DNA of 64,000 bases. It comes from Vicinamibacterales bacterium. GTDB lineage: Bacteria > Acidobacteriota > Vicinamibacteria > Vicinamibacterales > UBA2999. Below, in pieces: positions 4,163-60,639 of this stretch (within the stretch, counting starts at the first letter, position 1; each line of letters begins with the position of its first letter). The notes under the pieces are model-generated. The model ran no database searches and was not told where the DNA came from. It saw nothing but the letters and a program-made list of their open reading frames with translations. A program made the translations under genes and the position numbers. The DNA lies in the NCBI GenBank assembly GCA_050250875.1, contig JBFWNV010000003.1:167153-231152 (forward strand), in the 5' to 3' direction.

Positions 4163-5842
4163 TCACGGCCTCGCCCGGCCCGGACCGTGCAGCATCCGCC
4201 CCGGGCGCGCGCCGGTCAGGCCGTCAGGGCTCAGCGCCGCCACGCCGTTGACGATCACGTGGTCGATCCCGCGCGGATAGCTGTGCGGCCGCTCGTAGGT
4301 GGCGGTGTCGGCGATGGTCGCCGGATCGAACACGACCAGGTCGGCGAACGCGCCGGCGCGGATCACGCCGCGGTCGCGGATCTGGAACTGCTCGGCGGCG
4401 AGGCTGGTCATCCGCCGCACCGCCTCCTCCAGGGTCAGCAGCCGCGTCTCGCGGACGTAGTGGCCGAGCACGCGCGGGAACGTCCCGTAGGCGCGCGGAT
4501 GCGGCTGTCCCTGCGCCAGCGGCCCCTCGTGCCGGATGGCCGCCGAGTCGGTGCCGATCGACACGAACGGGGCGGCGAGGCCGGTGCGCACGTCGTCCTC
4601 GCTCATCATGTGGTACAAGGCGCCGGCGCGGCCCTTCGTGCCGGCGATGATCTCGAAGAGCACGTCCCAGGGGTCGGCCTTGCGGGCGGCGGCGATCTGG
4701 CTCAACCGCTGGCCGACCACGGTCGGGTCGTACTCCGGCGGCACCGAGGCGATCTGCACGCCGTCGAAGGTCGCCGCCATCAACAGGTTCTCCCAGCCGT
4801 CGGTCGTGCCCTCGACCTCCTTGCGGATTCGGGCGCGCAGCGCCGGATCGGCGAGACGCGCCAGCATGGCGTCGTTGCCGCCCTCCTGCGCCCACAGCGG
4901 CAGCACGGCGGCCAGCCGCGTGCCGCCGGCCGCATACGGATACATCGTGGCCGACACCTTCTGGCCGGACGCCGCCGCGTCGCGCAGCGTCTTCACCGCC
5001 TCGCCCATCCGCCCCCAGTTGGCTTTCGCGCCGACCTTGAGGTGGAAGACGACCACCGGCAGCCCGCCGTCGCGCCCGATGCGCAGCGCTTCGTCGAGGG
5101 CGTTGAACAGGTTGAAGCTCTCGCCGCGGACGTGGGTGACATAGATGCCGCGGTGCCGTGCCGCCGCCTTGGCCAGCGCGATCAGTTCCTCGGTGGTGGC
5201 GAACGACCCGGGCATGTAGATCAGCGCGCTCGACAGCCCGAAGGCGCCGTCCGCCATCGCCCGCTCGACGATCGCCGTCATCCGCTCGAGTTCGTCCGGC
5301 GTCGGTGCCCGGTCGTCGAGGCCGATGACCTCGCTGCGCACCAGCGTCGCCGGCACCAGCGTGCCGACGTTGATGGTCGTGCCGCCCTGGCCCAGGCGGG
5401 CGGCGTACTGGTCGTAGGAGGTCCAGTCCACCGCTTGGCCGGCCCGCGCCAGCGCCTCGCCCGCCGCCGTCTTCGCGGTCCAGAACGCCGGCGAGTCGCC
5501 CTCGCCGATGATCTCGCTGGTGATGCCCTGGCGCAGATGACTCTCGCCGCGGCCGTCGATGAGCAGCGTCGTGCCCGACTGGCCCTGCACGTCGATGAAC
5601 CCCGGACTGACGACGCGGCCCGCGGCGTCGATCACCGTCGCCGCGGCGGCCGCCGACAGGTCGCCGATCGCGACGATGCGATCGCCGCTGACGCCGATGT
5701 CGGCGCGGACGGCCGGCGTGCCACGGCCGTCGATCACCTGGCCGCCGCGGATCAGCAGGTCGAAGCGCGGCGGCGAGCCGCACCCGGCCGCCACCGCCAC
5801 CCACGCCAGCAGCGCCGCCTGCCATCCAATGCGTCCGGTCAT
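4163..5842 (-). CDS. D-aminoacylase-family amidohydrolase (N-acyl-D-amino-acid deacylase-like), lipoprotein
   Basis: FDLLIRGGQVIDGRG...GFIDVQGQSG N-terminus, typical of the family. Start taken at MTGRIGW (cat 5840-5842) with GGGAG 4 nt upstream. Lipobox VAAGC. The track ORF starts 36 nt further upstream at a GTG. Confidence 0.7.
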   Translation of the reverse strand: MTGRIGWQAALLAWVAVAAGCGSPPRFDLLIRGGQVIDGRGTPAVRADIGVSGDRIVAIGDLSAAAAATVIDAAGRVVSPGFIDVQGQSGTTLLIDGRGESHLRQGITSEIIGEGDSPAFWTAKTAAGEALARAGQAVDWTSYDQYAARLGQGGTTINVGTLVPATLVRSEVIGLDDRAPTPDELERMTAIVERAMADGAFGLSSALIYMPGSFATTEELIALAKAAARHRGIYVTHVRGESFNLFNALDEALRIGRDGGLPVVVFHLKVGAKANWGRMGEAVKTLRDAAASGQKVSATMYPYAAGGTRLAAVLPLWAQEGGNDAMLARLADPALRARIRKEVEGTTDGWENLLMAATFDGVQIASVPPEYDPTVVGQRLSQIAAARKADPWDVLFEIIAGTKGRAGALYHMMSEDDVRTGLAAPFVSIGTDSAAIRHEGPLAQGQPHPRAYGTFPRVLGHYVRETRLLTLEEAVRRMTSLAAEQFQIRDRGVIRAGAFADLVVFDPATIADTATYERPHSYPRGIDHVIVNGVAALSPDGLTGARPGRMLHGPGRARP

Positions 5843-5883
5843 CGCGCTCCCGTTCACGCCGCCCGCGCCTATACTCACCGGCG

Positions 5884-7008
5884 ATGCCCCAGCCGGCGCT
5901 CGAGTTCCTCACGCCTCGCCCGGCGGGCGGCGGCGGGCGTGGCCTGTTCGACGCCGACGAGTATGCCCGGCAGCGTGCGTTCTTCACAACGCACGACGCC
6001 CGCCCGCTGGTCGCGCTCCCGGGCCTGGCCGCCGTGCTCGGCCTCGGCGGGCTCCTCGTCAAGGACGAAACGGGGCGCGCCGGGCTGCCGGCCTTCAAGA
6101 GCGTCGGCGTCGAATTCGCGGTGGACGCGCTCGCCCGTCGCGGCGATCTCGACGGCGTTTCGACGCTGGTCTGCGCCAGCGCCGGCAACCATGGCCGGGC
6201 CGTTGCCCGGGCCGCGCGCCTGGCCGGCCTCGGCGCGACGATCTTCCTCGACCGCGACGTGGCCGCGGCGCGGGTCGACGCGATTGCCTCGGAGGGCGCC
6301 ACCATCGTCCGGGTGGCCGGCACCTACGACGACGCGGTCCGCGAGGCGGCCGCGCACGCCGCATCGAGCGGCGGGCTGGTCGTCTCCGACACCTCGTGGC
6401 CCGGCTACACGCAGATCCCGCGCGACATCATGCTCGGCTACACGCGGATCATGGACGAAGCGGCGGCGGCGTGGGGCCCCGACGGCCCGCCGGACCTCCT
6501 GGTCGTCCAGGCCGGCGTCGGCGGGCTGCTGGCGGCGGTGGCGAGCTGGTCGGCGTGGACCTACGGCGCGGCGCGGCCGCGCCTGGTGGCGGTCGAGCCG
6601 CTGCGCGCCGCGTGCGTCCAGGCCTCGGCGCGTGCCGGCCGCCCCACCGCGGTGACCGGGCCCCTGACGACCATCATGGCGGGGCTGCGCTGCGGCGAGG
6701 TGTCGCCGCTGGCGTTCGAGGCGCTGGCGGGCCTGGTGGACCTGTATCTGGCGGTGGACGACCACTGGACGCGCGAAGCGATGCGCCGGTTCGCCCGGCC
6801 CGAGCCCGGCGACGTCGCCCTGGCCGTCGGCGCCTCGGGAGCCGCCGGCCTCGCCGCCCTGCTCGCCCTGCGCGGTGACCCGGCCTGTAGCGGCGTTGCC
6901 GAGGCTCTGGACCTCACGGCGGCGAGCCGCGCCCTGGTCATCGCCACCGAGGGCGTGACCGAGCCCAACCTCTGGGCGGACGCGGTCGGGCTCGGGGCTG
7001 GGGACTAG
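5884..7008 (+). CDS. Diaminopropionate ammonia-lyase-like PLP enzyme
   Basis: LVKDETGRAGLPAFKSVG matches the VKDES-R-GL-AFK-LG PLP-lysine block of DAP ammonia-lyases (Trp-synthase-beta fold). TATACT lies at 5870-5875, 8 nt before the ATG. Confidence 0.65.
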   Translation: MPQPALEFLTPRPAGGGGRGLFDADEYARQRAFFTTHDARPLVALPGLAAVLGLGGLLVKDETGRAGLPAFKSVGVEFAVDALARRGDLDGVSTLVCASAGNHGRAVARAARLAGLGATIFLDRDVAAARVDAIASEGATIVRVAGTYDDAVREAAAHAASSGGLVVSDTSWPGYTQIPRDIMLGYTRIMDEAAAAWGPDGPPDLLVVQAGVGGLLAAVASWSAWTYGAARPRLVAVEPLRAACVQASARAGRPTAVTGPLTTIMAGLRCGEVSPLAFEALAGLVDLYLAVDDHWTREAMRRFARPEPGDVALAVGASGAAGLAALLALRGDPACSGVAEALDLTAASRALVIATEGVTEPNLWADAVGLGAGD

Positions 7009-7076: not shown

Positions 7077-7102
7077 CCCGAGCCCCGAGACCCGAGCCCC
7101 GG
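7077..7102. repeat. C-rich heptad arm CCCGAGC CCCGAGA CCCGAGC CCCGG
   Basis: Same heptad family as 60614-60639. Partner arm is at 6988-7011, 65 nt upstream. Confidence 0.6.
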
Positions 7103-7106
7103 TCGT

Positions 7107-7139
7107 CTGGCCACCGGCCAGAGTCCCACCGGTGGCCAG
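7107..7139 (+). promoter_or_regulatory. Perfect 11-bp inverted repeat CTGGCCACCGG-N11-CCGGTGGCCAG (candidate enhancer/UAS)
   Basis: Read directly. Its centre is about 110 bp upstream of the TGGCAC element. No T-tract follows, so it is an unlikely terminator. Confidence 0.4.
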
Positions 7140-7204
7140 CCTGTCCCACTTCCGGACGATCCTTGAACCGATACCGCGGAACCCGGCGCCTGGAACTCTC
7201 GTTG

Positions 7205-7231: not shown

Positions 7232-7247
7232 TGGCACGGCGTTTGAG
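7232..7247 (+). promoter_or_regulatory. Candidate sigma54 -24/-12 promoter TGGCACG-GCGT-TTGAG
   Basis: TGGCACG is a perfect -24 element. The -12 element is TTGA rather than TTGC. It sits about 65 nt upstream of the ATG at 7313, and an NtrC-type activator is encoded in the same gene string. Confidence 0.45.
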
Positions 7248-7312
7248 ACATTTCCCCGCAGCGGGTGCCATCCGTTTGGCTGGCGCGCCCGTCTAAGGAG
7301 CGATTCGAGTTC

Positions 7313-8575
7313 ATGGACGTTCAACGACCCGCATCCGTCGCCCGTCAGAAGAAGCTGCGCCGCATCTACATGGGCGTCGCCGCCGTCGCCGTCGTCGCGC
7401 TCGTCTCGGTGTTCCTCGCCCGGTTGAAGCCGGCGTCGCCGACGGTCGAGCGCGCCACGGTCTGGGTCGACACCGTGAAGCGCGGCGAGCTGATCCGCCA
7501 GGTGCGCGGCCTCGGCACGCTGGTGCCGGTGGACGAGGCGCGCCGCTGGCTGGCGTCGTCCACGCAGGGCCGCGTCGAGCGCATCGTGCTGCGTCCCGGC
7601 GCCCAGGTGACACCCGACACGGTGATCATCGAGCTCGCCGACCCGCAGCTCCAGCAGCAGCTGCTCGAGGCCGAGAACCAGCTGCGCGCCGCCGAAGCCG
7701 ATCTCGCCAGCCTGAAGGCCCGGCTCGACACCGAGCGGCTGAACCAGCGCTCGATCGCCGCCACGGTCGAAGCCGACTACGAGCAGGCGCGGCTCGAGCG
7801 CGAGGTCAACGAGGACCTGGCCCGGGACGGCCTGGTGTCGAACCTCATCCTCAAGCAGTCCACGGTCCGTTCGGAATCGCTGCGCACCCGCGCTCAGCTC
7901 GAGAAGGAACGCGTGTCGGTCAACGAGGAGAGCGTCCGCGCGCAGCTGCTCGGCCAGCAGGCCCGCGTCGATCAGCTGCGCACGCTGTTCCAGCTGCGGC
8001 GCCACCAGGTGGACGACCTGCGCGTCCGCGCCGGGATGACCGGCGTGCTCGAACAGGTGCCGGTGGAGGTCGGCCAGCAGGTGGCGCCGGGCACCAACGT
8101 GGCCCGCGTCGCCGACCCGAACCGCCTCAAGGCCGAGCTGCGCATCGCCGAGACGCAGGCCCGCGACCTCACCATCGGCCAGGTCGCGTCGGTGGACACC
8201 CGCAACGGCATCATCCCCGGCCGGGTCATCCGCATCGACCCGGCGGCGCAGAACGGCACCGTCACGGTCGACGTCGAGCTGCAGGGCGAGCTGCCGCGCG
8301 GCGCCCGTCCGGATCTGAGCGTCGACGGCACGGTTGAACTCGACCGCCTGGAGAACGTCTTGTACGTGGGACGGCCGGCCTTCGGGCAGGAGAACAGCGC
8401 CGTCGGCCTGTTCCTGGTCGACGCGGCCTCGGGCGAAGCCAGCCGGGTCCAGGTACAGCTCGGGCGCAGTTCGGTGAACACGATCGAAGTGAAGGGTGGC
8501 GTGAAGGAAGGCGATCAGCTGGTGCTGTCGGACATGTCCGCGTGGGACGCGTTCAACAGCGTGCGGCTGCGGTAA
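7313..8575 (+). CDS. HlyD/MacA-family periplasmic adaptor (membrane fusion protein)
   Basis: ATG at 7313 with AAGGAG 12 nt upstream. N-terminal TM IYMGVAAVAVVALVSVFL, long coiled-coil segment (QLLEAENQLRAAEADLASLKARL...), beta-barrel C-terminus. Confidence 0.8.
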   Translation: MDVQRPASVARQKKLRRIYMGVAAVAVVALVSVFLARLKPASPTVERATVWVDTVKRGELIRQVRGLGTLVPVDEARRWLASSTQGRVERIVLRPGAQVTPDTVIIELADPQLQQQLLEAENQLRAAEADLASLKARLDTERLNQRSIAATVEADYEQARLEREVNEDLARDGLVSNLILKQSTVRSESLRTRAQLEKERVSVNEESVRAQLLGQQARVDQLRTLFQLRRHQVDDLRVRAGMTGVLEQVPVEVGQQVAPGTNVARVADPNRLKAELRIAETQARDLTIGQVASVDTRNGIIPGRVIRIDPAAQNGTVTVDVELQGELPRGARPDLSVDGTVELDRLENVLYVGRPAFGQENSAVGLFLVDAASGEASRVQVQLGRSSVNTIEVKGGVKEGDQLVLSDMSAWDAFNSVRLR

Positions 8576-8604
8576 AGGAACGGCGGGCGAAGCCCGACCG
8601 CCAG

Positions 8605-8623
8605 CCCGAGGCCCGAGCCCCGG
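8605..8623. repeat. Single C-rich heptad arm CCCGAGG CCCGAGC CCCGG
   Basis: Read directly. It lies in the 65-nt spacer just upstream of the SD and ATG at 8641. Confidence 0.5.
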
Positions 8624-8640
8624 TTCAAAAAGGAGCCACG

Positions 8641-9345
8641 ATGTCCGACTCTGCTCAGTCCCTCATTCGTCTCGACGGTATCAAGAAGGTCTTCTTGACC
8701 GACGAGGTGGAGACGCACGCCCTCTCGGGCATCCACATGGAGATCAAGCAGGGCGAGTACGTGGCCATCTCGGGACCGTCGGGCTGCGGCAAGTCGACGC
8801 TGCTGGCCATCCTCGGGCTGCTCGACTCGCCCTCCGACGGCAAGTACTGGCTGAACGGCCAGGAAGTGGCCGACCTGCCGATGTCGCAGCGGGCCCGGGT
8901 CCGCAACCGTGAGATCGGGTTCATCTTCCAGAGCTTCAACCTGATCGGCGATCTCACCGTGTTCGAGAACGTCGAGCTGCCGCTCATCTACCGCGGCATG
9001 AAGTCGGCCGAGCGGCGCGAACGCGTCAACGCGGCGCTCGAGCGGGTCGGCATGGCGCACCGCGCCAAGCACCTGCCGTCGCAGCTCTCGGGCGGCCAGC
9101 AGCAGCGCGTCGCGGTGGCCCGCGCCGTCGCCGGCCAGCCGTCGATCCTGCTCGCCGACGAGCCCACCGGCAACCTCGACTCGAAGAACGGCGAGGCGGT
9201 GATGGACCTGCTGCGCGAACTGCACCGCGCCGGCGCGACCATCTGCATGGTCACCCACGACCCGCGCTACGCCGCGCACGCCGACCGCGCCATCCACCTG
9301 TTCGACGGCCGGGTGGTCGAAGACAACGTCGCGGCGCTGGCCTGA
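8641..9345 (+). CDS. ABC transporter ATP-binding protein, MacB/LolD-type (ATPase 1)
   Basis: ATG with AAAGGAG upstream. Walker A GPSGCGKST, signature LSGGQQQR, Walker B ILLADEPT, H-loop MVTHD. Confidence 0.9.
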   Translation: MSDSAQSLIRLDGIKKVFLTDEVETHALSGIHMEIKQGEYVAISGPSGCGKSTLLAILGLLDSPSDGKYWLNGQEVADLPMSQRARVRNREIGFIFQSFNLIGDLTVFENVELPLIYRGMKSAERRERVNAALERVGMAHRAKHLPSQLSGGQQQRVAVARAVAGQPSILLADEPTGNLDSKNGEAVMDLLRELHRAGATICMVTHDPRYAAHADRAIHLFDGRVVEDNVAALA

Positions 9346-9370
9346 GGCCGGTGCGACGGGCCGCGACACC

Positions 9371-11797
9371 GTGATCGCCGTGGGCGTGCTCGACGACCTC
9401 GGCCAGGGCCTGCGGGCCCTGCGCCGCGCGCCCGGCTTCTGCGCGCTCGCCCTCCTCACCCTGGCGCTGGGCATCGGCGGCACCGCCGCGATGTTCAGCG
9501 TCGTCTACGGCGTGCTGCTGCGGCCGCTGCCGTTCGCCGCGCCCGAGCAGCTCGTCCGCGTCTGGAGCACCGCCGGCAACGGCGAGCGCGGGTCGTTCGC
9601 CCCCGGCCGCTTCCTCGACGTCGAGCGGGAGTCGCGGGCGCTCGGCGGCGCCGCCGCCTACATCAGCACCTTCAGCGGCGTGGCCGCCGGCGGCGAACCC
9701 GTCCGGCTGGCCGGCGCCGAGGTGACCGCCGACTTCTTCGACGTGCTCGGCGCGCCGGCGGCGCGCGGCCGCACGTTCACCGCCGCCGATCGGCCCGGCG
9801 CGGCGCTCCTGGTCCTCTCCGACGGCGCGTGGCGCCAGCAGTTCGGGGCCGACCCGGCCATCGTCGGCCGGTCGCTGCGCGTCGACGGCCAGCCGTTCGA
9901 GGTCGTCGGCATCATGCCGCGCGACTTCGCGCTGCCCGAGCGGGCGCGCTTCTGGCGCCTGGCGCCACAACTGGTCCCGACGCCGCCGATGGAGGTCGAG
10001 GGCGTGCTGCTGGCCCAGCGCGGCCTCGCCTACATGGACGTCATCGCCCGCCTCGCGCCCGGGGTCACGCCGGCCGAGGCGGCGGCCGAGCTGCGGGTGC
10101 TGGCCGCCACGCTCGGCACGCGTCATCCCGACGACGACGCCGGCAACGGCTTCGACCTCGAGCCGGTCTACGAGACCATCGTCGGCGACGTGCGGCGATC
10201 GCTGCTCCTGCTGTTCGCCGCGGTCGGCGCGGTGCTGCTCATCGCCTGCACCAACGTCGCCAGCCTGATGCTGGCGCGCGCCCTCGGCCGCCGGCGCGAG
10301 CTGGCGGTGCGCATTGCGCTCGGTGCCCCCCGCGGCCGACTCGCCCGCCAGCTGATCGTCGAGAGCCTCGTGCTGGCGCTCGCCGGCGGCGCGCTCGGCG
10401 TCGTCGTCGCCGGCTGGGCGCTCGACGGGCTGCGGCTGCTGCTGCCGGCCACCGTGCCGCGCCTGGCGGCGATCCGCCTCGACTGGACGGCGGTGGCGTT
10501 CGCCGCGGCGACGTCGCTGGTCGTCGGCCTGGCCTTCGGCACGGCGCCGGCGTGGACGAGCCGGGCCCTCGCCTCGTTCGACGCGCTGCGCGACGGCGGA
10601 CGCACCAGCACCGGCGGGCGCCAGTGGCTGCGCCGCGGGCTGGTCGTCGGCCAGGTCGCGCTGGCCGCCGTGCTGCTCGCCGCCGCCGGCGTCATGGCGA
10701 CGAGCCTGTTCAAGCTGCAGCGCGTCGATATCGGCTTCGACGCCCGGGGCGTCGTCACCCAGCAGCTGGTCCTGCCGCAGTCGCGCTACGACCGCGCCGC
10801 CCAGGTGCGCTTCTACGAGGCGGTGACCGAACGGCTCGCCGCCGATCCACGCGTCGCCGCTGCGGCCGTCGTCTTCCCCTCGCCGTTCGGCGTCAGCCAG
10901 ACCGCCGCCACGATCCGGCTCGATCGGCCGGCGCCCGGCAGCGCCGCCGATGCCGAGCACGTCGTGCGCCTGGCCTCGATCACGCCGGGCTTCTTCGACG
11001 CGATGGGCATCCCGCTGCTGGCCGGCCGCCGTTTCGACCCCGCCGACTTTCCCCAGGCGGCACGCCGCGCCATCGTCAACCGCGCGTTCGCCGCGCGCCT
11101 GCTCGGCGGCGGCGACGTCATCGGCCGCTACCTGCAGCTGGGTGACGACGCCGACGACCGCTACACGATCGTCGGCGTGGCCGCCGATGCGCGGGCCGCC
11201 CGGCTCGACCAGGCCGCCGAGCCGATCGCCTACCTGCCGCACAGCCATCTGACCCTGCCGTTCATGCGGCTGATCGTCCGCGGCACCGGCGCCGAGGCCG
11301 CGACCCGCGACGCGATGGCGATGGCGCTTCGCGCCGAAGCCCCCGACCTCGCCCTCGATCCGCCGCAGACGCTGGCGGCCCTGGTGAGCGACTCCACGGC
11401 CGAGCCGCGCTTCCGCAGCCGCCTCGTGGCCGCGTTCGCCGCCACGGCGCTCGGCCTGGCGATCCTCGGGCTCTACAGCCTGGTCAGCTTCACGGTGTCG
11501 GGCCGCACCCGCGAGATCGCGACCCGCCTGGCGCTCGGCGCCACGCCGGCGGCGATGCGGACCGGCGTGATTCGCGAGGGCCTGGCCCTGACCGCCGCCG
11601 GCCTGGCGGTCGGCCTGAGCGTCGCGGCGGCGCTCGGCCGACTCGTCGAAGGGCTGCTGTACGAGACCGCGGCGCTCGACCCCGCCGTCACCGCGGCGCT
11701 GGTGGTGGTGATGACGCTGGCCGCGGTCGTGGCATGCTATCTTCCGGCCCGGCGCGCCATGCGCGTCGCGCCCACCGAGGCGCTGCGCGCCGAGTGA
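9371..11797 (+). CDS. Duplicated FtsX-domain ABC permease, ADOP-like (MacB-type fold twice in one chain)
   Basis: 808 aa. N-terminus LRALRRAPGFCALALLTLALGIGGTAAMFSVVYGVLLRPLPF is typical of ADOP/MacB permeases. There are two TM-periplasmic domain-FtsX units, ending ...LARALGRRRELAVRIALGA and ...SGRTREIATRLALGA. Confidence 0.85.
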   Translation: MIAVGVLDDLGQGLRALRRAPGFCALALLTLALGIGGTAAMFSVVYGVLLRPLPFAAPEQLVRVWSTAGNGERGSFAPGRFLDVERESRALGGAAAYISTFSGVAAGGEPVRLAGAEVTADFFDVLGAPAARGRTFTAADRPGAALLVLSDGAWRQQFGADPAIVGRSLRVDGQPFEVVGIMPRDFALPERARFWRLAPQLVPTPPMEVEGVLLAQRGLAYMDVIARLAPGVTPAEAAAELRVLAATLGTRHPDDDAGNGFDLEPVYETIVGDVRRSLLLLFAAVGAVLLIACTNVASLMLARALGRRRELAVRIALGAPRGRLARQLIVESLVLALAGGALGVVVAGWALDGLRLLLPATVPRLAAIRLDWTAVAFAAATSLVVGLAFGTAPAWTSRALASFDALRDGGRTSTGGRQWLRRGLVVGQVALAAVLLAAAGVMATSLFKLQRVDIGFDARGVVTQQLVLPQSRYDRAAQVRFYEAVTERLAADPRVAAAAVVFPSPFGVSQTAATIRLDRPAPGSAADAEHVVRLASITPGFFDAMGIPLLAGRRFDPADFPQAARRAIVNRAFAARLLGGGDVIGRYLQLGDDADDRYTIVGVAADARAARLDQAAEPIAYLPHSHLTLPFMRLIVRGTGAEAATRDAMAMALRAEAPDLALDPPQTLAALVSDSTAEPRFRSRLVAAFAATALGLAILGLYSLVSFTVSGRTREIATRLALGATPAAMRTGVIREGLALTAAGLAVGLSVAAALGRLVEGLLYETAALDPAVTAALVVVMTLAAVVACYLPARRAMRVAPTEALRAE

Positions 11798-11798
11798 T

Positions 11799-11826
11799 CC
11801 CCCGGGCCCCGAGCCCCGAGTCCCGC
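11799..11826. repeat. Single C-rich heptad arm CCCCCGGGCCCCGAGCCCCGAGTCCCGC
   Basis: Fills the entire spacer between the permease stop (11797) and the ATG at 11827. No SD is visible. Confidence 0.5.
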
Positions 11827-12495
11827 ATGATTCGCTTAGCCAACATCGAGAAGTCCTACCGCCACGGCGTCAGCCAGACCTTCGTGCTGCGCCGCGTCAG
11901 CGTCGAGATCGCCCAGGGCGACTTCGTGTCGATCATGGGGCCGTCGGGCGCCGGCAAGAGCACGCTGCTCCACATCCTCGGCATGCACGACTCGGCGTGG
12001 AGCGGCGAGTACTGGCTGCACGACCAGCCGGTGCACGCCCTGTCGAACAAGGACCGGCTGCGGCTGCAGAAGCAGCACATCGGCTTCGTGTTCCAGAGCT
12101 ATCACCTGCTCGACAACCTGACGGTCTACGAGAACATCGACCTCCCGCTCTCCTACCGCGACGTCAAGCGCACCGAGCGGCAGGGCATGGTCGGCGACAT
12201 CCTCGACCGGTTCAACATCGTCGGCAAGAAGGATCTCTATCCGAACCAGCTCTCGGGCGGCCAGCAGCAGCTGGTCGCCATCGCCCGCGCCGTCGTCGCC
12301 AACCCGACGATCATCCTCGCCGACGAGCCGACCGGCAACCTGCACTCCGACCAGGGCCGCGAGATCATGGAGCTGTTCGCCAAGCTCAACGCCCAGGGCA
12401 CGACGGTCGTGCAGGTGACCCACTCGGAAGCCAACGCCGCCTTCAGCCGCCGCGTCATCCGCCTGAAGGACGGCTGGATCGTCGATGCGGCCTGA
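11827..12495 (+). CDS. ABC transporter ATP-binding protein (ATPase 2, distinct paralogue)
   Basis: Start at MIRLANIEKSY. Walker A GPSGAGKST, LSGGQQQL, Walker B IILADEPT, H-loop VTHS. It differs from ATPase 1 over most positions by eye. Confidence 0.9.
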   Translation: MIRLANIEKSYRHGVSQTFVLRRVSVEIAQGDFVSIMGPSGAGKSTLLHILGMHDSAWSGEYWLHDQPVHALSNKDRLRLQKQHIGFVFQSYHLLDNLTVYENIDLPLSYRDVKRTERQGMVGDILDRFNIVGKKDLYPNQLSGGQQQLVAIARAVVANPTIILADEPTGNLHSDQGREIMELFAKLNAQGTTVVQVTHSEANAAFSRRVIRLKDGWIVDAA

Positions 12496-13846
12496 CGTCC
12501 CGCCGCGCGTCCTCATCGCCGACGACCAGGCCGACGTCCTCGAGGCGCTGCGCCTCCTGCTCAAGCCCGAGGGCTACGTCATCGACACGGCTGCCTCGCC
12601 GGCCCAGGTGACGCGGGCGCTCGACCTCAAGGACTACGACGTCGTCCTCATCGACCTGAACTACGCGCGCGACACCACCTCGGGCGAAGAGGGGCTCGAT
12701 CTGCTCAGCCGCATCCACGCCGCCGACGAGTCGCTGCCGGTGGTGGTGATGACGGCCTGGGGCTCGGTGGACGTCGCCGTCGAGGCGATGCGCCGCGGCG
12801 CCCGCGACTTCATCCAGAAGCCGTGGGACAACGAACGCCTGCTGTCGATCCTGCGCACGCAGACCGAGCTGGGCCGGGCGATCCGCCGCGGCCGCCGGCT
12901 CGAGCTGGCCAACCAGGCGCTGCAGGCCGACGGCCACTCGCCGCTGCTGGCCGAATCGGCGGCGATGCGGCCGGTGCTGGAAGTGATCGCGCGGGTCGGC
13001 CCGGCCGACGCCAACGTCCTCATCACCGGCGAGAACGGCACCGGCAAGAGCCTGGTGGCGCAGGCCCTGCACGCCGTGTCGCCGCGCGCCGCGCGGCCGA
13101 TGGTCACCGTGAACGCCGGCGGCATGGCCGAGGGCGTCTTCGAGAGCGAGCTGTTCGGCCACGTCCGCGGCGCCTTCACCGACGCCAAGGTCGATCGGGT
13201 CGGCCGCTTCGAACTGGCCGACGGCAGCACGCTGTTCCTCGACGAGATCGCCAACGTGCCGCTCAGCCAGCAGACCAAGCTGCTGCGCGTGATCGAGACC
13301 GGCGAGTTCGAACGGGTCGGCTCGTCGAAGACCCGCAAGGTCAACGTGCGCGTCATCTCGGCGACCAACGCCGACCTCGCCGCCGAAGTGGCGGCCGGGC
13401 GGTTCCGCCAGGACCTGCTGTTCCGTCTCAACACCATCGAGATCGCCCTGCCGCCGCTGCGCGACCGCCGCGAGGACATCCCGCTGCTGGCGCGGCACTA
13501 CCTGCGCCTGCACGCCCAGCGCTACCGCAAGTCGCTCACCGGCTTCGACCCGAGCGCCCTCCAGCTGCTGCTCGACCACCGCTGGCCGGGCAACGTCCGC
13601 GAGCTCGATCACGCCATCGAGCGGGCGGTGCTGATGGCCCAGGGCAACGTCGTCCGCGCCACCGACCTCGGCCTGCGCGTCGAGCACGCCGGCGCCGGGC
13701 GGCTCGAGGACATGAGCCTCGAGGAAGTCGAAGCCTTCCTCATCAAGAAGGCGATGGCCCGCTACGGCAACGTCAGCCAGTCCGCCCGGGCCCTCGGCCT
13801 GTCGCGCAGCGCGCTCTACCGCCGCCTGGAGCGCTACAAGCTGTAA
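12485..13846 (+). CDS. Sigma54-dependent response regulator (receiver-AAA+-Fis HTH, NtrC family)
   Basis: Receiver VLIADDQ...VVLIDLNY. Walker [15 protein letters not shown] in place of GAFTGA. Walker B LFLDEI. C-terminal [21 protein letters not shown]. Overlaps ATPase 2 by 11 nt. Confidence 0.85.
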
Positions 13847-13869
13847 CCTGAGGGCCCCGTCCCTCGCCC

Positions 13870-15183
13870 ATGAACCGTCTGCGCTTCGATCAGCACGCCG
13901 TCGCGCTGGCCCTCGGCGCGTCGCTGCCGGCGCTCGTCGCGGCGCTGCTGCTGCTGTGGACCGGCGGCTACTCGGCCAAGGTGCAGTGGACGGTGACCAC
14001 GGTGCTGGCCGCCGTCGCCGCCGGGTGCCTGGTGTCGCTCCGCGCCCACGTCGTGACGCCGCTGCAGACGCTGGCCAACCTGATCGCCGCGATGCGCGAG
14101 GACGATTTCTCGATCCGCGGCCGCACGGTGTCGGCCGGCGACCCGCTGGGCGACGTGATGAGCGAGGTCAACGCCCTGGCCGAGACGCTGCACGAGCAGC
14201 GCCTCGGTGCCGTCGAGGCGACGGCGCTGCTGCGCACGGTGATGGAGCAGATCGACGTCGCCGTGCTGGCCTTCGACCCGGCGCAGCGGCTGCGCCTGGT
14301 CAACCGCACGGGCGAACGGCTGCTCGGCCGCCCGGCCGAGCAGGCGCTGGGACGCTCGGCGCAGGAACTCGGCGTCACCGACTGGTTCGGCGAGGCGCCG
14401 CGGATCGTCGATCTGGCCGTGCCGGGCGGCGTCGGGCGCTGGGAGGTGCGGCGCACCACCTTCCGGCTCGGCGGGCAGCGTCACGACCTGCTGGTCCTCT
14501 CGGACGTCAGCCGGCCGCTGCGCGAGGAGGAGCGCCAGGCCTGGCAGCGCCTCATCCGCGTCATCGGCCACGAGCTGGGCAACTCGCTCGGGCCGATCAA
14601 GTCGATCGCCGGATCGCTCGACGCCCTGCTCAACCGCGAGCCGCCGCCCGCCGACCTGCGCGACGACCTGCGCCGCGGCCTGCAGGTGATCGGCGCGCGC
14701 GCCGAGTCGCTGAGCCGGTTCACCGCCGCCTACGCGCAGCTGGCCAAGCTGCCGCCGCCGCGGCTCGCCCCGGTGGTGCTGAAGCCGCTGCTGCAGCGCG
14801 TCGCCGGCGTCGAGACCCGCGTGCCGGTGACGGTGCGGCCGGGGCCCGACATCACGCTGAACGTCGACGGCGATCAGATCGAGCAACTGGTGATCAACCT
14901 GCTGCGCAACGCCGCCGAGGCGACCCTCGACGCCGGCGGACACGGCGTGTCGATCGGCTGGCGGCAGACGCCGCGCGGAGTCGACGTGTGGGTCGACGAC
15001 GACGGACCGGGTCCGCCGAAGACCGCCAACCTGTTCGTGCCGTTCTTCACCACCAAGCCCGGCGGCTCGGGCATCGGACTGGTGCTGTGCCGGCAGATCG
15101 CCGAGGCGCACGGCGGCACGCTGGCGCTCGAGCTGCGCCCGCGCGGCAGCGGCTGTCGCGCCACCCTCACGCTGCCGATATGA
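13870..15183 (+). CDS. Sensor histidine kinase (2 TM with about a 3-residue loop, HAMP, PAS, HisKA, HATPase)
   Basis: TM1 AVALALGASLPALVAALLLLW, loop SAK, TM2 VQWTVTTVLAAVAAGCLVSL. H-box VIGHELGNSLGPI. N-box NLLRNAAEA. DDGPG and GGSGIGL. Confidence 0.85.
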   Translation: MNRLRFDQHAVALALGASLPALVAALLLLWTGGYSAKVQWTVTTVLAAVAAGCLVSLRAHVVTPLQTLANLIAAMREDDFSIRGRTVSAGDPLGDVMSEVNALAETLHEQRLGAVEATALLRTVMEQIDVAVLAFDPAQRLRLVNRTGERLLGRPAEQALGRSAQELGVTDWFGEAPRIVDLAVPGGVGRWEVRRTTFRLGGQRHDLLVLSDVSRPLREEERQAWQRLIRVIGHELGNSLGPIKSIAGSLDALLNREPPPADLRDDLRRGLQVIGARAESLSRFTAAYAQLAKLPPPRLAPVVLKPLLQRVAGVETRVPVTVRPGPDITLNVDGDQIEQLVINLLRNAAEATLDAGGHGVSIGWRQTPRGVDVWVDDDGPGPPKTANLFVPFFTTKPGGSGIGLVLCRQIAEAHGGTLALELRPRGSGCRATLTLPI

Positions 15184-15189
15184 GCGGGC

Positions 15190-16608
15190 ATGACCGGGCC
15201 GAGCGGCTGGACGTGTGCGTCGTGTGAGCGCCGGGTGCCACCGGGTGTCGAGGTGTGCCGATGTGGCGCGCCGCGTCCGCGGCCGGCGGCGGCCGTCGAG
15301 GCCGACGACGACGCGGCGGAGGACGGCGGCGGTCTGAACCCGGGCAAGGTGCTGCTGGCCGGCGTCGCGGTCGTCGGCCTGGCGGCGGTCTACTTCTGGA
15401 CCACCGCCGCGCCGGCCCCGGCCACGCCCGCGCCGGCGGTTTCCAGCCCGACCGGCAGCACGCCGCCGTCGGCGCCGCCGGTTCCGCAGCCGCGCGTCGA
15501 GACGGCGCCCACCTCGGAGAGCATGGCCGCCGAGTCCGCGCCGGCGAGCGCGACGTACACGACACCCGATCCGCCGACGCCGGCCCCGCTGTCCCGGGCG
15601 GACGCGTCGGGCCTCGGGCTCGAGGATCTCGTCGCCCGCACCGGTGGCGCCGTCGTGATGGTCGAGGCCGGGCCGTCGCGCGGCACTGGCTTCTTCGTGC
15701 GCCCCGACCTCATCGTCACCAACGATCACGTGGTGTCCGGGCAGACCGCGGTGACGGTGCGGCTCCACGACGGCTCGGCCCGCGCCGCGCGTGTCGAGCG
15801 CGCCGTGGCCGACGTCGACCTCGCCCTGCTGCGCCTGTCGGGCGCCGGCTCGGCGACGGTGCTGCCGCTCGGCCAGGCCAGCGCCGTGCGGACCGGCCAG
15901 GAGGTGATCGCCATCGGCTCGGCCCTTGGCCTGCAGAACACCGTGACCCGCGGCATCGTCAGCGCCCAGCGCCGCGCCGGCAGCGTCGTGCTGCTGCAGA
16001 CCGATGCCGCGATCAATCCGGGCAACAGCGGCGGACCGCTGCTCGATCGGCAGGGCGTCGTCGTCGGGGTCACCACGCTCAAGATGGGGGGACCGGCCGA
16101 GGGCCTCGGCTTCGCGGTGGCCGCGGACCACGTCGCGGCCCTGGTCGAGGGGCACTCCTCGACCCGCATCGCGACCGCCGCCGGCGCGCCGCCGCCCGCG
16201 GCAGGGGCGGCCGCGCCGAGCGCCATGCCCGGGTTCGGCGCCGCCGGGTCGAGCGCCGATGCCCGCCGCACCGACGGCGAGCAGATCTTCGAGCGGACGA
16301 TGGCGGCCCTGGCCGAGCAGGCCGCGCAGGTGGATGGTCACTGGCAGCGTTTCACCAGCGCGTGCGCGCCACGGCCCCGGCCAGGGGGCGACCGCGAGTG
16401 GTTCGGACTGTCGGAGGGCCGCGTCGAGTACACCAGCCGGGACCGCAACTGTCCGTACTGGCTCAACGACATGACGTCGATGAGCCGTGAGTTCGACGCG
16501 GCGATGCGCGCCGCCGGCGAAGCCGCGCGCCGCGCCGGGGTCTTTCCCGGCACGCTGCGCGACGTGCGCCGCCGTCACCGGCTCGACTGGCCCGGCTTCG
16601 ACCGCTGA
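15190..16608 (+). CDS. Membrane-anchored trypsin-fold (S1/HtrA-like) serine protease with an N-terminal zinc ribbon and a non-PDZ C-terminal domain
   Basis: CASCERRVPPGVEVCRCG. TM LLAGVAVVGLAAVYFW and a Pro-rich linker. Triad contexts TNDHVV, DVDLALLRL and NPGNSGGPLLD. The roughly 140-aa tail has Cys residues and no PDZ-like GLGF motif. Confidence 0.75.
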   Translation: MTGPSGWTCASCERRVPPGVEVCRCGAPRPRPAAAVEADDDAAEDGGGLNPGKVLLAGVAVVGLAAVYFWTTAAPAPATPAPAVSSPTGSTPPSAPPVPQPRVETAPTSESMAAESAPASATYTTPDPPTPAPLSRADASGLGLEDLVARTGGAVVMVEAGPSRGTGFFVRPDLIVTNDHVVSGQTAVTVRLHDGSARAARVERAVADVDLALLRLSGAGSATVLPLGQASAVRTGQEVIAIGSALGLQNTVTRGIVSAQRRAGSVVLLQTDAAINPGNSGGPLLDRQGVVVGVTTLKMGGPAEGLGFAVAADHVAALVEGHSSTRIATAAGAPPPAAGAAAPSAMPGFGAAGSSADARRTDGEQIFERTMAALAEQAAQVDGHWQRFTSACAPRPRPGGDREWFGLSEGRVEYTSRDRNCPYWLNDMTSMSREFDAAMRAAGEAARRAGVFPGTLRDVRRRHRLDWPGFDR

Positions 16609-16609
16609 G

Positions 16610-17692
16610 CTACACCGGCACGACGCGGCCTTCGGCCGCGCGCCGCAGGCGATCCCACACCGCCGCCCCGAGGTCGTGGCGCTCGGGTCCCGAAGCGACG
16701 ATCACGTCCACGCCGTCGCCGTCCAGCGCCCTGAGGGCCGCGAACAGCCGCTGCGCCGCCTGTGCCGGCTCGCCGCGCCGGCCCAGGGTGGCGACCACGA
16801 CGCGGCCGTGCGACGACACCGCGGCGACATCGGGGGCGATCGCCACCAGGTCCTCGTCCGGGGCCAGCACGCCGACTCGCCGGCCCGACGCCACGTGCGT
16901 GCGGACTTCCGCGCTCAGCCGGCGCACGACGTCGGCGGGTGCCCCGGCATAGACGGTGAGGGCGGCCGCCGGCGCGTAGTGCCGCAGCAGCTGTCCCGGC
17001 GCCACCTGCGCCTGCTCGACGGCCGCCTCACCGGCGACGGCGACGATCCCGGGCACCACCGCCCGCAGGCGCTCGAGCGGGATGCCGCCGGCGCGCCGCA
17101 CGACCGCCGGCTCCACGGTGCAGTCGACAATCGTCGACTCGACGCCGATGTCCGTCGGCCCGGCGTCGAGCACGAGATCGACGGCGCCGTCGAGATCGGC
17201 CAGGACGTGCGCGGCCGTGGTCGGACTCGGCCGCGAGAAGCGGTTCGCGCTCGGGGCGGCAACGGGCACGCCGGCGGCGCGGATGAGGGCCAGCGCCACC
17301 GGATGCGCGGGCACCCGCACGGCCACCGTGTCGAGCCCCGCCGTGACCGCCGGCGGCACCACGTCGCGCCGCGGCAGGATGAGCGTGAGCGGCCCCGGCC
17401 AGAACGCCGCCGCCAGCGCTGCGGCCGACGGCGGCACCGCCGCAGCGACCTGATCGAGGTCGGTGGCCCCCGCCAGGTGCACGATCACCGGGTCGGTCGC
17501 CGGACGCCCCTTGGCGGCGAAGATCGCCGCCACCGCCGCCGGATCCAGCGCGGCGCCGCCGAGCCCGTAGACCGTCTCGGTCGGGAACGCCACCAGCCCG
17601 CCGGCGCGGATCAGCGCCGCCGCGCGGGCGATGGTCGCGGCATCGGGCGTCGCGCGGTCGACCGCGGCGACGGACGTGGAGCGGCGGTGCAC
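16610..17692 (-). CDS. tsaC: L-threonylcarbamoyladenylate synthase, Sua5-type (YrdC domain + Sua5 C-terminal domain)
   Basis: VAFPTETVYGLG motif. Length of 360 aa, with the C-terminal extension typical of Sua5. Confidence 0.85.
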   Translation of the reverse strand: MHRRSTSVAAVDRATPDAATIARAAALIRAGGLVAFPTETVYGLGGAALDPAAVAAIFAAKGRPATDPVIVHLAGATDLDQVAAAVPPSAAALAAAFWPGPLTLILPRRDVVPPAVTAGLDTVAVRVPAHPVALALIRAAGVPVAAPSANRFSRPSPTTAAHVLADLDGAVDLVLDAGPTDIGVESTIVDCTVEPAVVRRAGGIPLERLRAVVPGIVAVAGEAAVEQAQVAPGQLLRHYAPAAALTVYAGAPADVVRRLSAEVRTHVASGRRVGVLAPDEDLVAIAPDVAAVSSHGRVVVATLGRRGEPAQAAQRLFAALRALDGDGVDVIVASGPERHDLGAAVWDRLRRAAEGRVVPV

Positions 17693-60493: not shown

Positions 60494-60498
60494 GAACC

Positions 60499-60543
60499 GG
60501 GGCTCGGGGCTCGGGGCTCGGGGCTCGGGGCTCGGGGCTCGGG
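60499..60543. repeat. Tandem heptad microsatellite (GGGGCTC)x6 + GGG
   Basis: Counted directly. It is the left arm of an inverted repeat with 60614-60639 and satisfies the G4N3 quadruplex pattern. Confidence 0.9.
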
Positions 60544-60613: not shown

Positions 60614-60639
60614 CCCGAGACCCGAGCCCCGAGCCCCGG
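60614..60639. repeat. C-rich heptad arm CCCGAGA CCCGAGC CCCGAGC CCCGG
   Basis: Reverse complement of the left-arm heptads. The 70-nt AT-richer spacer is 60544-60613. Confidence 0.85.

Follow-up and report, generated by a model that had tools for sequence, protein, structure and literature searches.

An ADOP duplicated permease between two different ABC ATPases at a MacAB-like, putatively sigma54-controlled locus of Acidobacteriota

In two ATP-binding cassette (ABC) systems of type VII, MacAB-TolC (Escherichia coli MacB, PDB 5NIK) and Spr0693-0695 of Streptococcus pneumoniae (PDB 5XU1), the permease unit consists of a first transmembrane (TM) helix, a periplasmic MacB_PCD domain and three further TM helices; MacB is a homodimer with a fused nucleotide-binding domain (NBD), and Spr0694/0695 has one ATPase gene. 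Here we describe an operon of a Vicinamibacterales bacterium (Acidobacteriota; GenBank assembly GCA_050250875.1, contig JBFWNV010000003.1, positions 167,153 to 231,152, forward strand; this whole stretch of 64,000 nucleotides is called the window below) in which two permease units of the same build are fused in one chain, a duplicated permease of the ADOP family, and in which separate NBDs are encoded by two different genes, ATP1 and ATP2, on either side of the permease gene. The operon has the NBD subfamily and the adjacent HlyD-type adaptor in common with MacAB-type pumps, but it includes a sigma54 two-component system and has no adjacent outer-membrane factor gene. We propose, with about as much confidence as doubt, that an envelope machine of the MacAB-like kind (type VII ABC), under sigma54 control, has its core in this region and is driven by a heterodimeric ATPase pair, which many ADOPs probably share.

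Other described systems come close to single aspects of this operon. LolCDE, also of type VII, has asymmetric permeases (LolC is not LolE) on two identical copies of LolD, whereas here the halves are fused and the NBD genes differ. The darobactin exporter DarBCD (NF038007, NF038008, NF038010), located in a biosynthetic cluster for a ribosomally synthesized and posttranslationally modified peptide, combines an adaptor, one MacB-type ATPase and a duplicated permease of about 780 aa; its single ATPase gene contrasts with the two found here. Sharing of ATPases is familiar from ABC importers, where one gene of the MsiK type serves many permease systems with homodimeric importer NBDs, and to our knowledge it has not been described for type VII systems or for heterodimeric pairs. 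YbbAP of E. coli (PDB 9GE6) has, as here, a fused internal-repeat permease with two periplasmic domains, separate MacB-type ATPases and pseudo-two-fold symmetry (PMC12654888), yet YbbP carries two extra linking TM helices (PMC5985334) compared with the 8 hydrophobic segments of the ADOP, and YbbAP lacks paralogue arrays as well as the adaptor and second ATPase of our operon. The heterodimeric exporters TAP1/2, TM287/288 and TmrAB resemble it in having two NBDs with interface asymmetry that includes the D-loop (PMC4242082, PMC7756269). These exporters are, however, of type I/IV, built from half-transporters that fuse a transmembrane domain to an NBD, whereas the NBDs of the ADOP system are separate; and they have a degenerate site with an altered Walker B Glu, H-loop or signature, whereas ATP2 is changed only at the D-loop Asp and at the Arg that follows the signature. 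A 2018 review of the MacB family distinguishes homodimeric (MacB, FtsX), heterodimeric-permease (LolCE) and fused (BceB, YbbP) architectures, with a separate NBD in the fused cases and no mention of a heterodimeric NBD (PMC5985334). For ADOPs themselves the literature is nearly empty, and in what was searched on ADOPs, on MacB in Acidobacteria and on FtsX-like permeases linked to sigma54 we found no description of an ADOP system with paired ATPases. In Psychroflexus torquis a highly expressed 42-kb cluster holds ten ADOP paralogues, whose role was called unknown, and is "associated with other transporter proteins", ATP-binding ones included (PMC3914696).

The operon and its permease

The genes in question belong to a same-strand run (7265-16608), delimited by GC content at third codon positions (GC3), and the operon reads sigma54-type promoter, HlyD-type adaptor, ATP1, ADOP, ATP2, NtrC-type response regulator and two-helix histidine kinase. 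An earlier note on this DNA, made from the sequence alone, had described the three genes from ATP1 to ATP2; all three lie at the window positions that it gave, and the operon is wider, taking in the adaptor, the sigma54 regulator, the kinase and the promoter as well. Its features, in window coordinates, are as follows.

7143 to 7157, + strand: upstream motif GTCCCACTTCCGGAC, with GTCCC and CGGAC blocks invariant in 7 aligned orthologous upstream regions
7232 to 7247, + strand: candidate sigma54-type promoter TGGCACGGCGTTTGAG, with -24 element TGGCAC and -12 element TTGA, about 65 nt 5' of the adaptor ATG
7313 to 8575, + strand: periplasmic adaptor (membrane fusion protein of the HlyD/RND_mfp type; TIGR01730, 116.2 bits, cutoff 94.9)
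8641 to 9345, + strand: ATP1, canonical MacB/LolD-type ABC ATPase of 234 aa (GPSGCGKST, LSGGQQQR, ADEPTGNLD, MVTHD)
9371 to 11797, + strand: ADOP duplicated permease of 808 aa (TIGR03434; two MacB_PCD and two FtsX domains; 8 predicted TM helices)
11827 to 12495, + strand: ATP2, second ABC ATPase, 222 aa (LSGGQQQL, GNLH; catalytic motifs intact)
12485 to 13846, + strand: NtrC-type sigma54-dependent response regulator (receiver, AAA+ sigma54 activator and Fis helix-turn-helix)
13870 to 15183, + strand: histidine kinase (two N-terminal TM helices, then PAS and HATPase_c)
15190 to 16608, + strand: membrane-anchored trypsin-like serine protease, starting 6 nt after the kinase stop

The permease is a genuine member of the ADOP family, as the earlier note had proposed: it scores 799.4 bits against TIGR03434 ("ADOP family duplicated permease"; curated cutoff, 622.3) and aligns end to end, with residues 7-808 on profile positions 2-803 of 803. 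The two TM-periplasmic-FtsX halves that had been read from its 808 aa are recovered as two stretches each of MacB_PCD (PF12704) and FtsX (PF02687) in Pfam and as 8 hydrophobic segments in a hydropathy scan, arranged as (1 + periplasmic domain + 3) x 2, so that the four-TM unit in which a large periplasmic domain separates TM1 from TM2, a type VII trait, is present. The halves are related to each other (31% identity over 255 aa; E, 8e-8), and E. coli MacB (5NIK) matches residues 115-406 (E, 1.6e-19). A protein search with the permease returns orthologues from Vicinamibacterales first and then thousands of paralogues. As is usual for this family in Acidobacteria and allied phyla, paralogues are numerous: related genomes carry as many as 10 copies in tandem, and the window carries one. 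Family scans recover no further permease gene in the operon and no second ADOP in the window, the remainder of which encodes housekeeping functions, among them PriA, Der, HflX, Sua5 and glycogen synthase.

The window has a GC content of 70-76% throughout, and GC3 is 0.92-0.96 in all operon genes. An actinobacterial origin, which a GC content of 73% had brought to mind, was rejected in view of the sigma54 activator in the operon and of closest homologues in Vicinamibacterales. The values for ATP1 and ATP2 (0.94 and 0.96) match those of their neighbors, which indicates native composition and rules out a foreign origin of either ATPase. As for gene starts, the adaptor open reading frame (ORF) opens with GTG at 7265, and ATG at 7313 is the likelier start; the protein matches HlyD_3 and HlyD_D23 in Pfam, shows one N-terminal TM segment in the hydropathy scan and has orthologues annotated at 419-420 aa. 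ATP1 is preceded by AAGGAG 8 nt upstream. For ATP2, a longer ORF from 11734 was rejected in favor of ATG at 11827, because orthologues are called at 222 aa. The regulator start overlaps the ATP2 stop by 11 nt, an overlap that is kept in loci L001, L003, L004 and L006.

Two co-conserved classes of ATPase

ATP1 and ATP2 align over 220 aa at 47% identity, with no gap. About half of the positions differ, so that the earlier description of the two as differing through most of their length was overstated. Both match models of the MacB, LolD, FtsE, YbbA and DarD types and fall below every equivalog cutoff. DarD is the top NCBIfam match of both (260.6 and 258.6 bits; cutoff, 375), DarB and DarC score 28.1 against 700 and 70.4 against 450, and the YbbA model NF007879 gives 225.9 (ATP1) and 163.6 (ATP2) against 336, scores that rule out DarBCD and YbbAP as the identity of the operon. 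The best solved match of both is 5XU1_A, with MacB (5NIK, 5LIL), MJ0796, YbbA (9GE6), LolD, BceA and FtsE also among the best matches, all of them identical NBD pairs with the canonical Arg and Asp. The operon departs from this pattern in having two NBD genes, and it resembles heterodimeric systems in that these are co-inherited and show a conserved interface asymmetry.

This asymmetry divides the sequences into two classes. Walker A is GPSGCGKST in the ATP1 type and GPSG(A/S)GKS(T/S) in the ATP2 type; the signature with its next residue is LSGGQQQR in the former and LSGGQQQL (once Q) in the latter; Walker B and D-loop read DEPTGNLD against DEPTG(N/S)LH (N/Q in the most distant members); and the H-loop reads MVTH(D/S) against QVTH(S/N/D). 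Among about 60 ATP2-type sequences, comprising all hits that match ATP2 best down to 55% identity, none has the D-loop Asp, which every ATP1-type sequence keeps. Both classes retain the Walker A Lys, Q-loop Gln, LSGGQ, Walker B Asp-Glu, H-loop His and an aromatic A-loop residue, and on these cis motifs both should bind and hydrolyze ATP. The earlier note was right that the two flanking ATPases keep Walker A and B, signature and H-loop, and it was silent on the loss of the D-loop Asp and of the Arg after the signature in ATP2. These ATP2-specific changes sit at the dimer interface. D-loops are less conserved in transporters with nonequivalent sites (PMC7756269), and loss of the D-loop Asp weakens NBD dimerization in other ABC proteins (PMC4242082).

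Across three phyla, ATP1-type sequences are 71-98% identical and ATP2-type sequences 58-98%, compared with only 30-46% for the adjacent permeases. ATP1 is 55-63% identical to the ATPase of single-ATPase systems with a sigma54 regulator and kinase, an adaptor and FtsX permeases, which are widespread (e.g., L122, L128, L133 and L141), and 41-48% identical to ATP2, which makes ATP2 an old separate lineage and no recent tandem copy. Two residues looked at as possible adaptations within the pair did not hold up: the Walker A Cys of ATP1 (GPSGCGKST), a candidate coadaptation to ATP2, also occurs in ATP1-like single-ATPase systems, and the position that follows the H-loop His, D in ATP1 but S in ATP2 and a candidate compensation for the D-loop His, is likewise found as THS in single-ATPase relatives. 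THD is the usual state of the H-loop in MacB, LolD and MJ0796.

For a census of the pair, the seven proteins of the window were mapped by tblastn onto 80 genome loci, fetched by alignment of the orthologue clade and thus biased to permeases resembling that of the window, and onto 80 metagenome loci, fetched by alignment of ATP2 orthologues. The order adaptor-ATP1-ADOP-ATP2-regulator-kinase is kept in orthologues at 81, 80, 61, 59, 54 and 44% permease identity, and conservation down to 44% argues that the arrangement is not due to chance. Among 170 related loci, ATP1- and ATP2-type genes co-occur in 26 distinct ones, in all of which they lie on one strand with ATP1 before ATP2. These loci belong to three phyla, Acidobacteriota, Gemmatimonadota and Verrucomicrobiota, and the taxa with both types include Vicinamibacterales, Pyrinomonadaceae/Blastocatellia, Acidobacteriaceae, Gemmatimonadota, Verrucomicrobiae and Spartobacteria; genes of the two types recur in Bryobacteraceae and Acidiferrales besides. 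The number of ADOP genes between ATP1 and ATP2 varies as follows.

0 ADOP genes: 7 loci
1 ADOP gene: 11 loci (window included)
2 ADOP genes: 3 loci
3 ADOP genes: 3 loci
4 ADOP genes: 1 locus
6 ADOP genes: 1 locus

In some lineages the two ATPase genes stand side by side ahead of an ADOP array. The adaptor is directly upstream of ATP1 in every case, and regulator and kinase mostly follow ATP2, being upstream or divergent in some loci. ATP2 alone was recorded at 29 loci, yet none of them is a clean counterexample: at 27 loci the cluster of ADOP and ATPase genes extends to within 1.3 kb of the end of the available sequence, and of the remaining two, L110 has 2.7 kb of upstream sequence, whereas in L106 an ATP1 gene does adjoin but, at 58% identity, falls under the census threshold.

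The pair is thus co-conserved with ADOPs, the adaptor and the sigma54 two-component system across three phyla, and we consider it very probable, in line with the earlier note, that both ATPases belong to the ADOP system rather than to another transporter. We lean slightly toward the view, also put forward in that note, that ATP1 and ATP2 act as a heterodimer, a view based on sequence comparison and strengthened by the invariable absence of two interface residues from ATP2, the canonical state of ATP1 and the failure to find ATP2 without ATP1 at loci whose upstream edge can be seen.

The metagenome locus L106 (4905-20576) has a low GC content (about 43%) and lies beside a GH2 beta-galactosidase. 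It carries a divergent kinase and sigma54 regulator, then the adaptor, ATP1-like and ATP2-like (LSGGQQQL/GNLH) genes and four duplicated FtsX permeases of 781-816 aa, two of which were scanned (783 and 813 aa) and score 241-303 bits on the ADOP model (cutoff, 622). With permeases below the cutoff in the same layout, the architecture reaches beyond ADOPs proper.

ADOPs at loci without an ATPase

In the TIGR03434 family definition, the word orphan describes the absence of an adjacent ABC ATPase gene. The sampled genes agree with such a trait, and with the earlier statement that ADOPs rarely stand beside an ATPase: of 228 full-length ADOP genes in the 80 genome loci, 25 adjoin an ATP1- or ATP2-type gene and 203 do not (23 of the 80 loci hold a gene of either type). 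Three paralogues at 40-42% identity to the permease of the window all lack a neighboring ATPase of these types, the sole ABC ATPase near them being unrelated, linked to FecCD and about 7 kb from the L009 permease. The orphan trait is therefore real for the family, and the ADOP of the window, with ATP1 and ATP2 genes on either side, is an exception, as the earlier note had seen. Nor is there a suitable ATPase at the orphan loci: in the fetched regions, an ABC ATPase of any kind is present in only 3 of 57 loci without ATP1 or ATP2, with an identity of no more than 34%.

Head-to-tail arrays of 7-10 ADOPs, with gaps mostly below 300 bp, occur in L063, L075, L040 and L038, and no ATPase is present in the 18-22 kb fetched for these loci. 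Genes of the PadR family adjoin or neighbor orphan ADOPs (L009:7676-8008 and L010:16588-16926), that of L009 overlapping the ADOP start by 8 nt, which suggests that orphan ADOPs are regulated apart from the sigma54-controlled core locus.

ADOPs with and without adjacent ATPases do not separate into two groups. In an all-against-all comparison of 279 full-length ADOPs, those adjacent to an ATPase have, beyond their close relatives, best matches among ADOPs from ATPase-less loci (40-53% identity), which rules out a special subfamily of non-orphan ADOPs. When 162 ATPase-less and 54 ATPase-adjacent ADOPs are aligned jointly, the two groups agree in both the consensus and the degree of conservation (0.68-0.79) of the cytoplasmic elements that would be expected to touch the NBDs; the consensus sequences of these elements are given here.

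Coupling helix 1: R.REiAIR.ALGAsR.RLvRQL
Coupling helix 2: RTrEIGIRMALGAq..dVLrLV
ADOP C terminus: ARRAtRVDPmvALRyE

The two coupling helices differ in conserved tails despite their common core. The periplasmic domains are the least conserved part of ADOPs (0.43), and the family gives the picture of an unchanging chassis that carries variable periplasmic heads.

The ATPase pair looks like a family-wide engine rather than a private one, since it brackets from 0 to 6 ADOPs and since ATPase-adjacent and orphan ADOPs are phylogenetically interleaved. With the identical docking segments of the orphans, its occurrence beside 0-6 ADOPs suggests that the pair may drive ATPase-less paralogues too, a prediction that we make tentatively.

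Regulation, proposed mechanism and significance

The TGGC and TTG of the promoter candidate are invariant across the 7 orthologous upstream regions, and L007 has a canonical TTGC. A strict form of the motif (TGGC[AG][CT]-N5-TTG[ACT], within 260 nt upstream) occurs 5' of 10 of 44 adaptor genes, other phyla included, compared with about 0.3 expected from background density. Conserved and enriched as it is, the promoter indicates that the operon probably carries its own sigma54 promoter and activator. A second copy of GTCCCAC lies at 7123-7129, upstream of the motif listed above, and the block from GTCCCAC to CCGGAC (7123-7157) is a candidate binding site of the sigma54 activator of the operon. 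Within the operon we found no sigma70-like promoter and no terminator on the + strand. Sigma54 promoters ahead of orphan ADOPs were considered and rejected: the strict motif precedes 3 of 354 ADOP genes, which is chance level without enrichment, and the orphans are probably regulated differently.

The histidine kinase, co-conserved with the regulator across loci, carries two TM helices with about 10 residues between them, which is how intramembrane-sensing kinases are laid out. In Bce-type modules such a kinase (e.g., BceS) relies on the ABC transporter for sensing. BceAB-BceRS likewise joins a type VII-related transporter to a two-component system with a two-TM, near-loopless kinase, a likeness by analogy only: BceR is of the OmpR type and BceB is a 10-TM protein with a single external domain, whereas here a sigma54 activator and a duplicated MacB-type permease are encoded.

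Around the operon lie a pyridoxal phosphate-dependent enzyme, two amidohydrolases, Sua5/TsaC and M16 peptidases (5884-7008; 4163-5878, - strand; 1505-2866; 16610-17692, - strand). Orthologues with as little as 44% permease identity keep these flanking genes in synteny with the operon, so that the locus belongs to a stable chromosomal core rather than to a mobile island. At its N terminus the protease at 15190-16608 carries a CxxC...CxC motif; a single TM helix and a linker rich in Pro and Ala are its other features. The protease stands at the end of the operon in L001, L003 and L006 and is missing from L007, L013 and more distant loci, so it may belong to the operon in close Vicinamibacterales relatives only. 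Heptamer repeats, (CCCGAGC)n, occupy three spacers of the operon (7077-7101, 8605-8622 and 11801-11825) and form an inverted pair of runs in another intergenic region (60498-60543, - strand; 60614-60638, + strand). They amount to 22 matches where 11 are expected and are unconserved in the orthologous upstream regions.

The mechanism that we propose would begin with the operon-encoded two-TM kinase and NtrC-type regulator, which would switch on the sigma54 promoter ahead of the adaptor gene and so act on their own operon. The adaptor would link the fused, pseudo-dimeric ADOP to an outer-membrane exit, and the two different ATPases would power the permease, one ATP1 and one ATP2 heterodimerizing on the two nonidentical halves of one permease. 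In such a dimer the Walker-motif site of ATP2 would be completed by the canonical signature and D-loop of ATP1, giving a canonical composite site, and that of ATP1 by the altered signature and D-loop of ATP2, giving an altered site; with one site of each kind, the motor would be intrinsically asymmetric. The pair, perhaps with the adaptor, would also drive ADOP paralogues elsewhere in the genome that vary chiefly in the periplasmic domains. Substrates, by analogy with type VII systems, would be expelled or extracted from the periplasm or the outer leaflet and not moved across the membrane.

Several observations weigh against this proposal. No outer-membrane factor gene is present among the flanking genes scanned (amidohydrolases, the pyridoxal phosphate enzyme, the protease, Sua5 and M16 peptidases), and the -12 element is TTGA rather than TTGC in most orthologues. 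ATP2 has all cis catalytic motifs and is therefore no classical degenerate NBD, and both coupling helices share the core RxREIxIRxALGA, with no obvious discrimination between two NBDs. Fused YbbP, moreover, binds two identical copies of YbbA (PMC12654888). ATP1 occurs without ATP2 in L158, L081, L148 and L026, each with at least 3 kb visible downstream; L158 reads adaptor-ATP1-ADOP-regulator-kinase, the other three have adaptor-ATP1-ADOP, and L081 has 10 kb downstream with no ATP2. These four loci speak most strongly against an obligate pair. ATP1 is thus probably able to work as a homodimer, like related single-ATPase systems. The verrucomicrobial locus L050, with adaptor, ATP1, four ADOPs, ATP2 and four more ADOPs, could equally be two units, each led by an ATPase. 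Finally, some ADOPs may have private ATPases: in a Vicinamibacterales metagenome-assembled genome, a third ATPase type (L014:12545-13219) directly follows an ADOP gene with no adaptor or regulator, is 60% identical to ATP1 and has LSGGHQQL, a canonical GNLD D-loop and IATHD.

The ATP1-only loci and the L050 layout favor the main rival explanation, which we consider unlikely: two homodimeric motors, with ATP1 dimers serving the adjoining, adaptor-coupled ADOP and ATP2 dimers serving array members and orphans. That the nearest relatives of ATP1 are in single-ATPase systems, that further ADOP genes follow ATP2 not only in L050 but also in L029, L054, L065 and L090, that ATP2 retains its catalytic motifs and that NBDs are homodimeric in every solved type VII system (PMC5985334) would all fit this view. 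It leaves unaccounted for, however, the 11 loci with a single ADOP between the ATPases and none after ATP2, and the fact that ATP2 is never observed without ATP1. In a dimer of two ATP2 chains, both sites would be without the D-loop Asp and without the Arg that follows the signature, and Asp loss weakens dimerization in other ABC proteins (PMC4242082). Two ADOP classes, one for each motor, appear neither in the cytoplasmic docking segments nor in the phylogeny.

The earlier note had envisaged a dedicated unit of one permease and two ATPases. This 1:1:1 machine, in which ATP1 and ATP2 would serve only the permease of the operon and the orphans would use something else or not be driven by ATP, agrees with the single-permease layout of the window and 10 other loci and with the tight spacing and overlapping genes. 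It proved too narrow for the other loci, where 0, 2, 3, 4 or 6 ADOPs are bracketed, and we judge it improbable on the whole: ATPase-adjacent ADOPs form no distinct clade, the orphans keep the same coupling helices and C-terminal segment with equal conservation, and no alternative ATPase is found at orphan loci.

Less probable again, and a long shot, is a role of ATP2 as a signaling ATPase that is no transport motor and couples transporter activity to the adjacent kinase and regulator. ATP2 is directly 5' of the regulator in many loci, with the 11-nt overlap noted above, and the kinase has the minimal-loop topology of transporter-dependent sensors such as BceS. On the other hand, ADOP genes or about 2 kb separate ATP2 from the regulator in L053, L057, L071, L105, L107, L108 and L119, the regulator is upstream or divergent in L086, L101 and L126, and ATP2 is a complete MacB-type NBD of ordinary length with no extra domain. 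Chance adjacency of an ATPase from an unrelated transporter, for which only the general abundance of ABC ATPase genes speaks, is highly improbable and already contradicted by the conservation of the pair with ADOPs in 26 loci of three phyla and by the lack of any other permease gene in the operon of the window.

The heterodimeric pair that we favor over these alternatives would give the mechanotransmission (type VII) class, the solved members of which have identical NBDs (PMC5985334, PMC12654888), a naturally occurring NBD heterodimer. As the asymmetry lies in the D-loop, with no degenerate catalytic site, it would be a natural experiment on how the D-loop controls NBD dimerization and coupling (PMC4242082). 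The finding is more general than the earlier note had supposed: a type VII tripartite system whose NBD pair is co-conserved and asymmetric at the interface, and whose fused permeases are multiple and putatively interchangeable. In soil Acidobacteriota, Gemmatimonadota and Verrucomicrobiota, few paralogous families are larger than the ADOPs, of which a genome has tens of genes in some soil phyla that rank with the most abundant. Our broadest suggestion, more tentative than those above, is that ADOPs are no orphans at all: each genome would encode one engine (adaptor, ATP1, ATP2 and the sigma54 two-component system), the heterodimeric pair of which would dock interchangeably on dozens of permeases. 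If true, type VII ABC systems would have in it their first case of a heterodimeric NBD pair and of one motor that serves many permeases. The conserved pair with its adaptor and regulator offers a testable answer to the question of what powers ADOPs, and would turn a problem of dozens of genes into a two-gene knockout.

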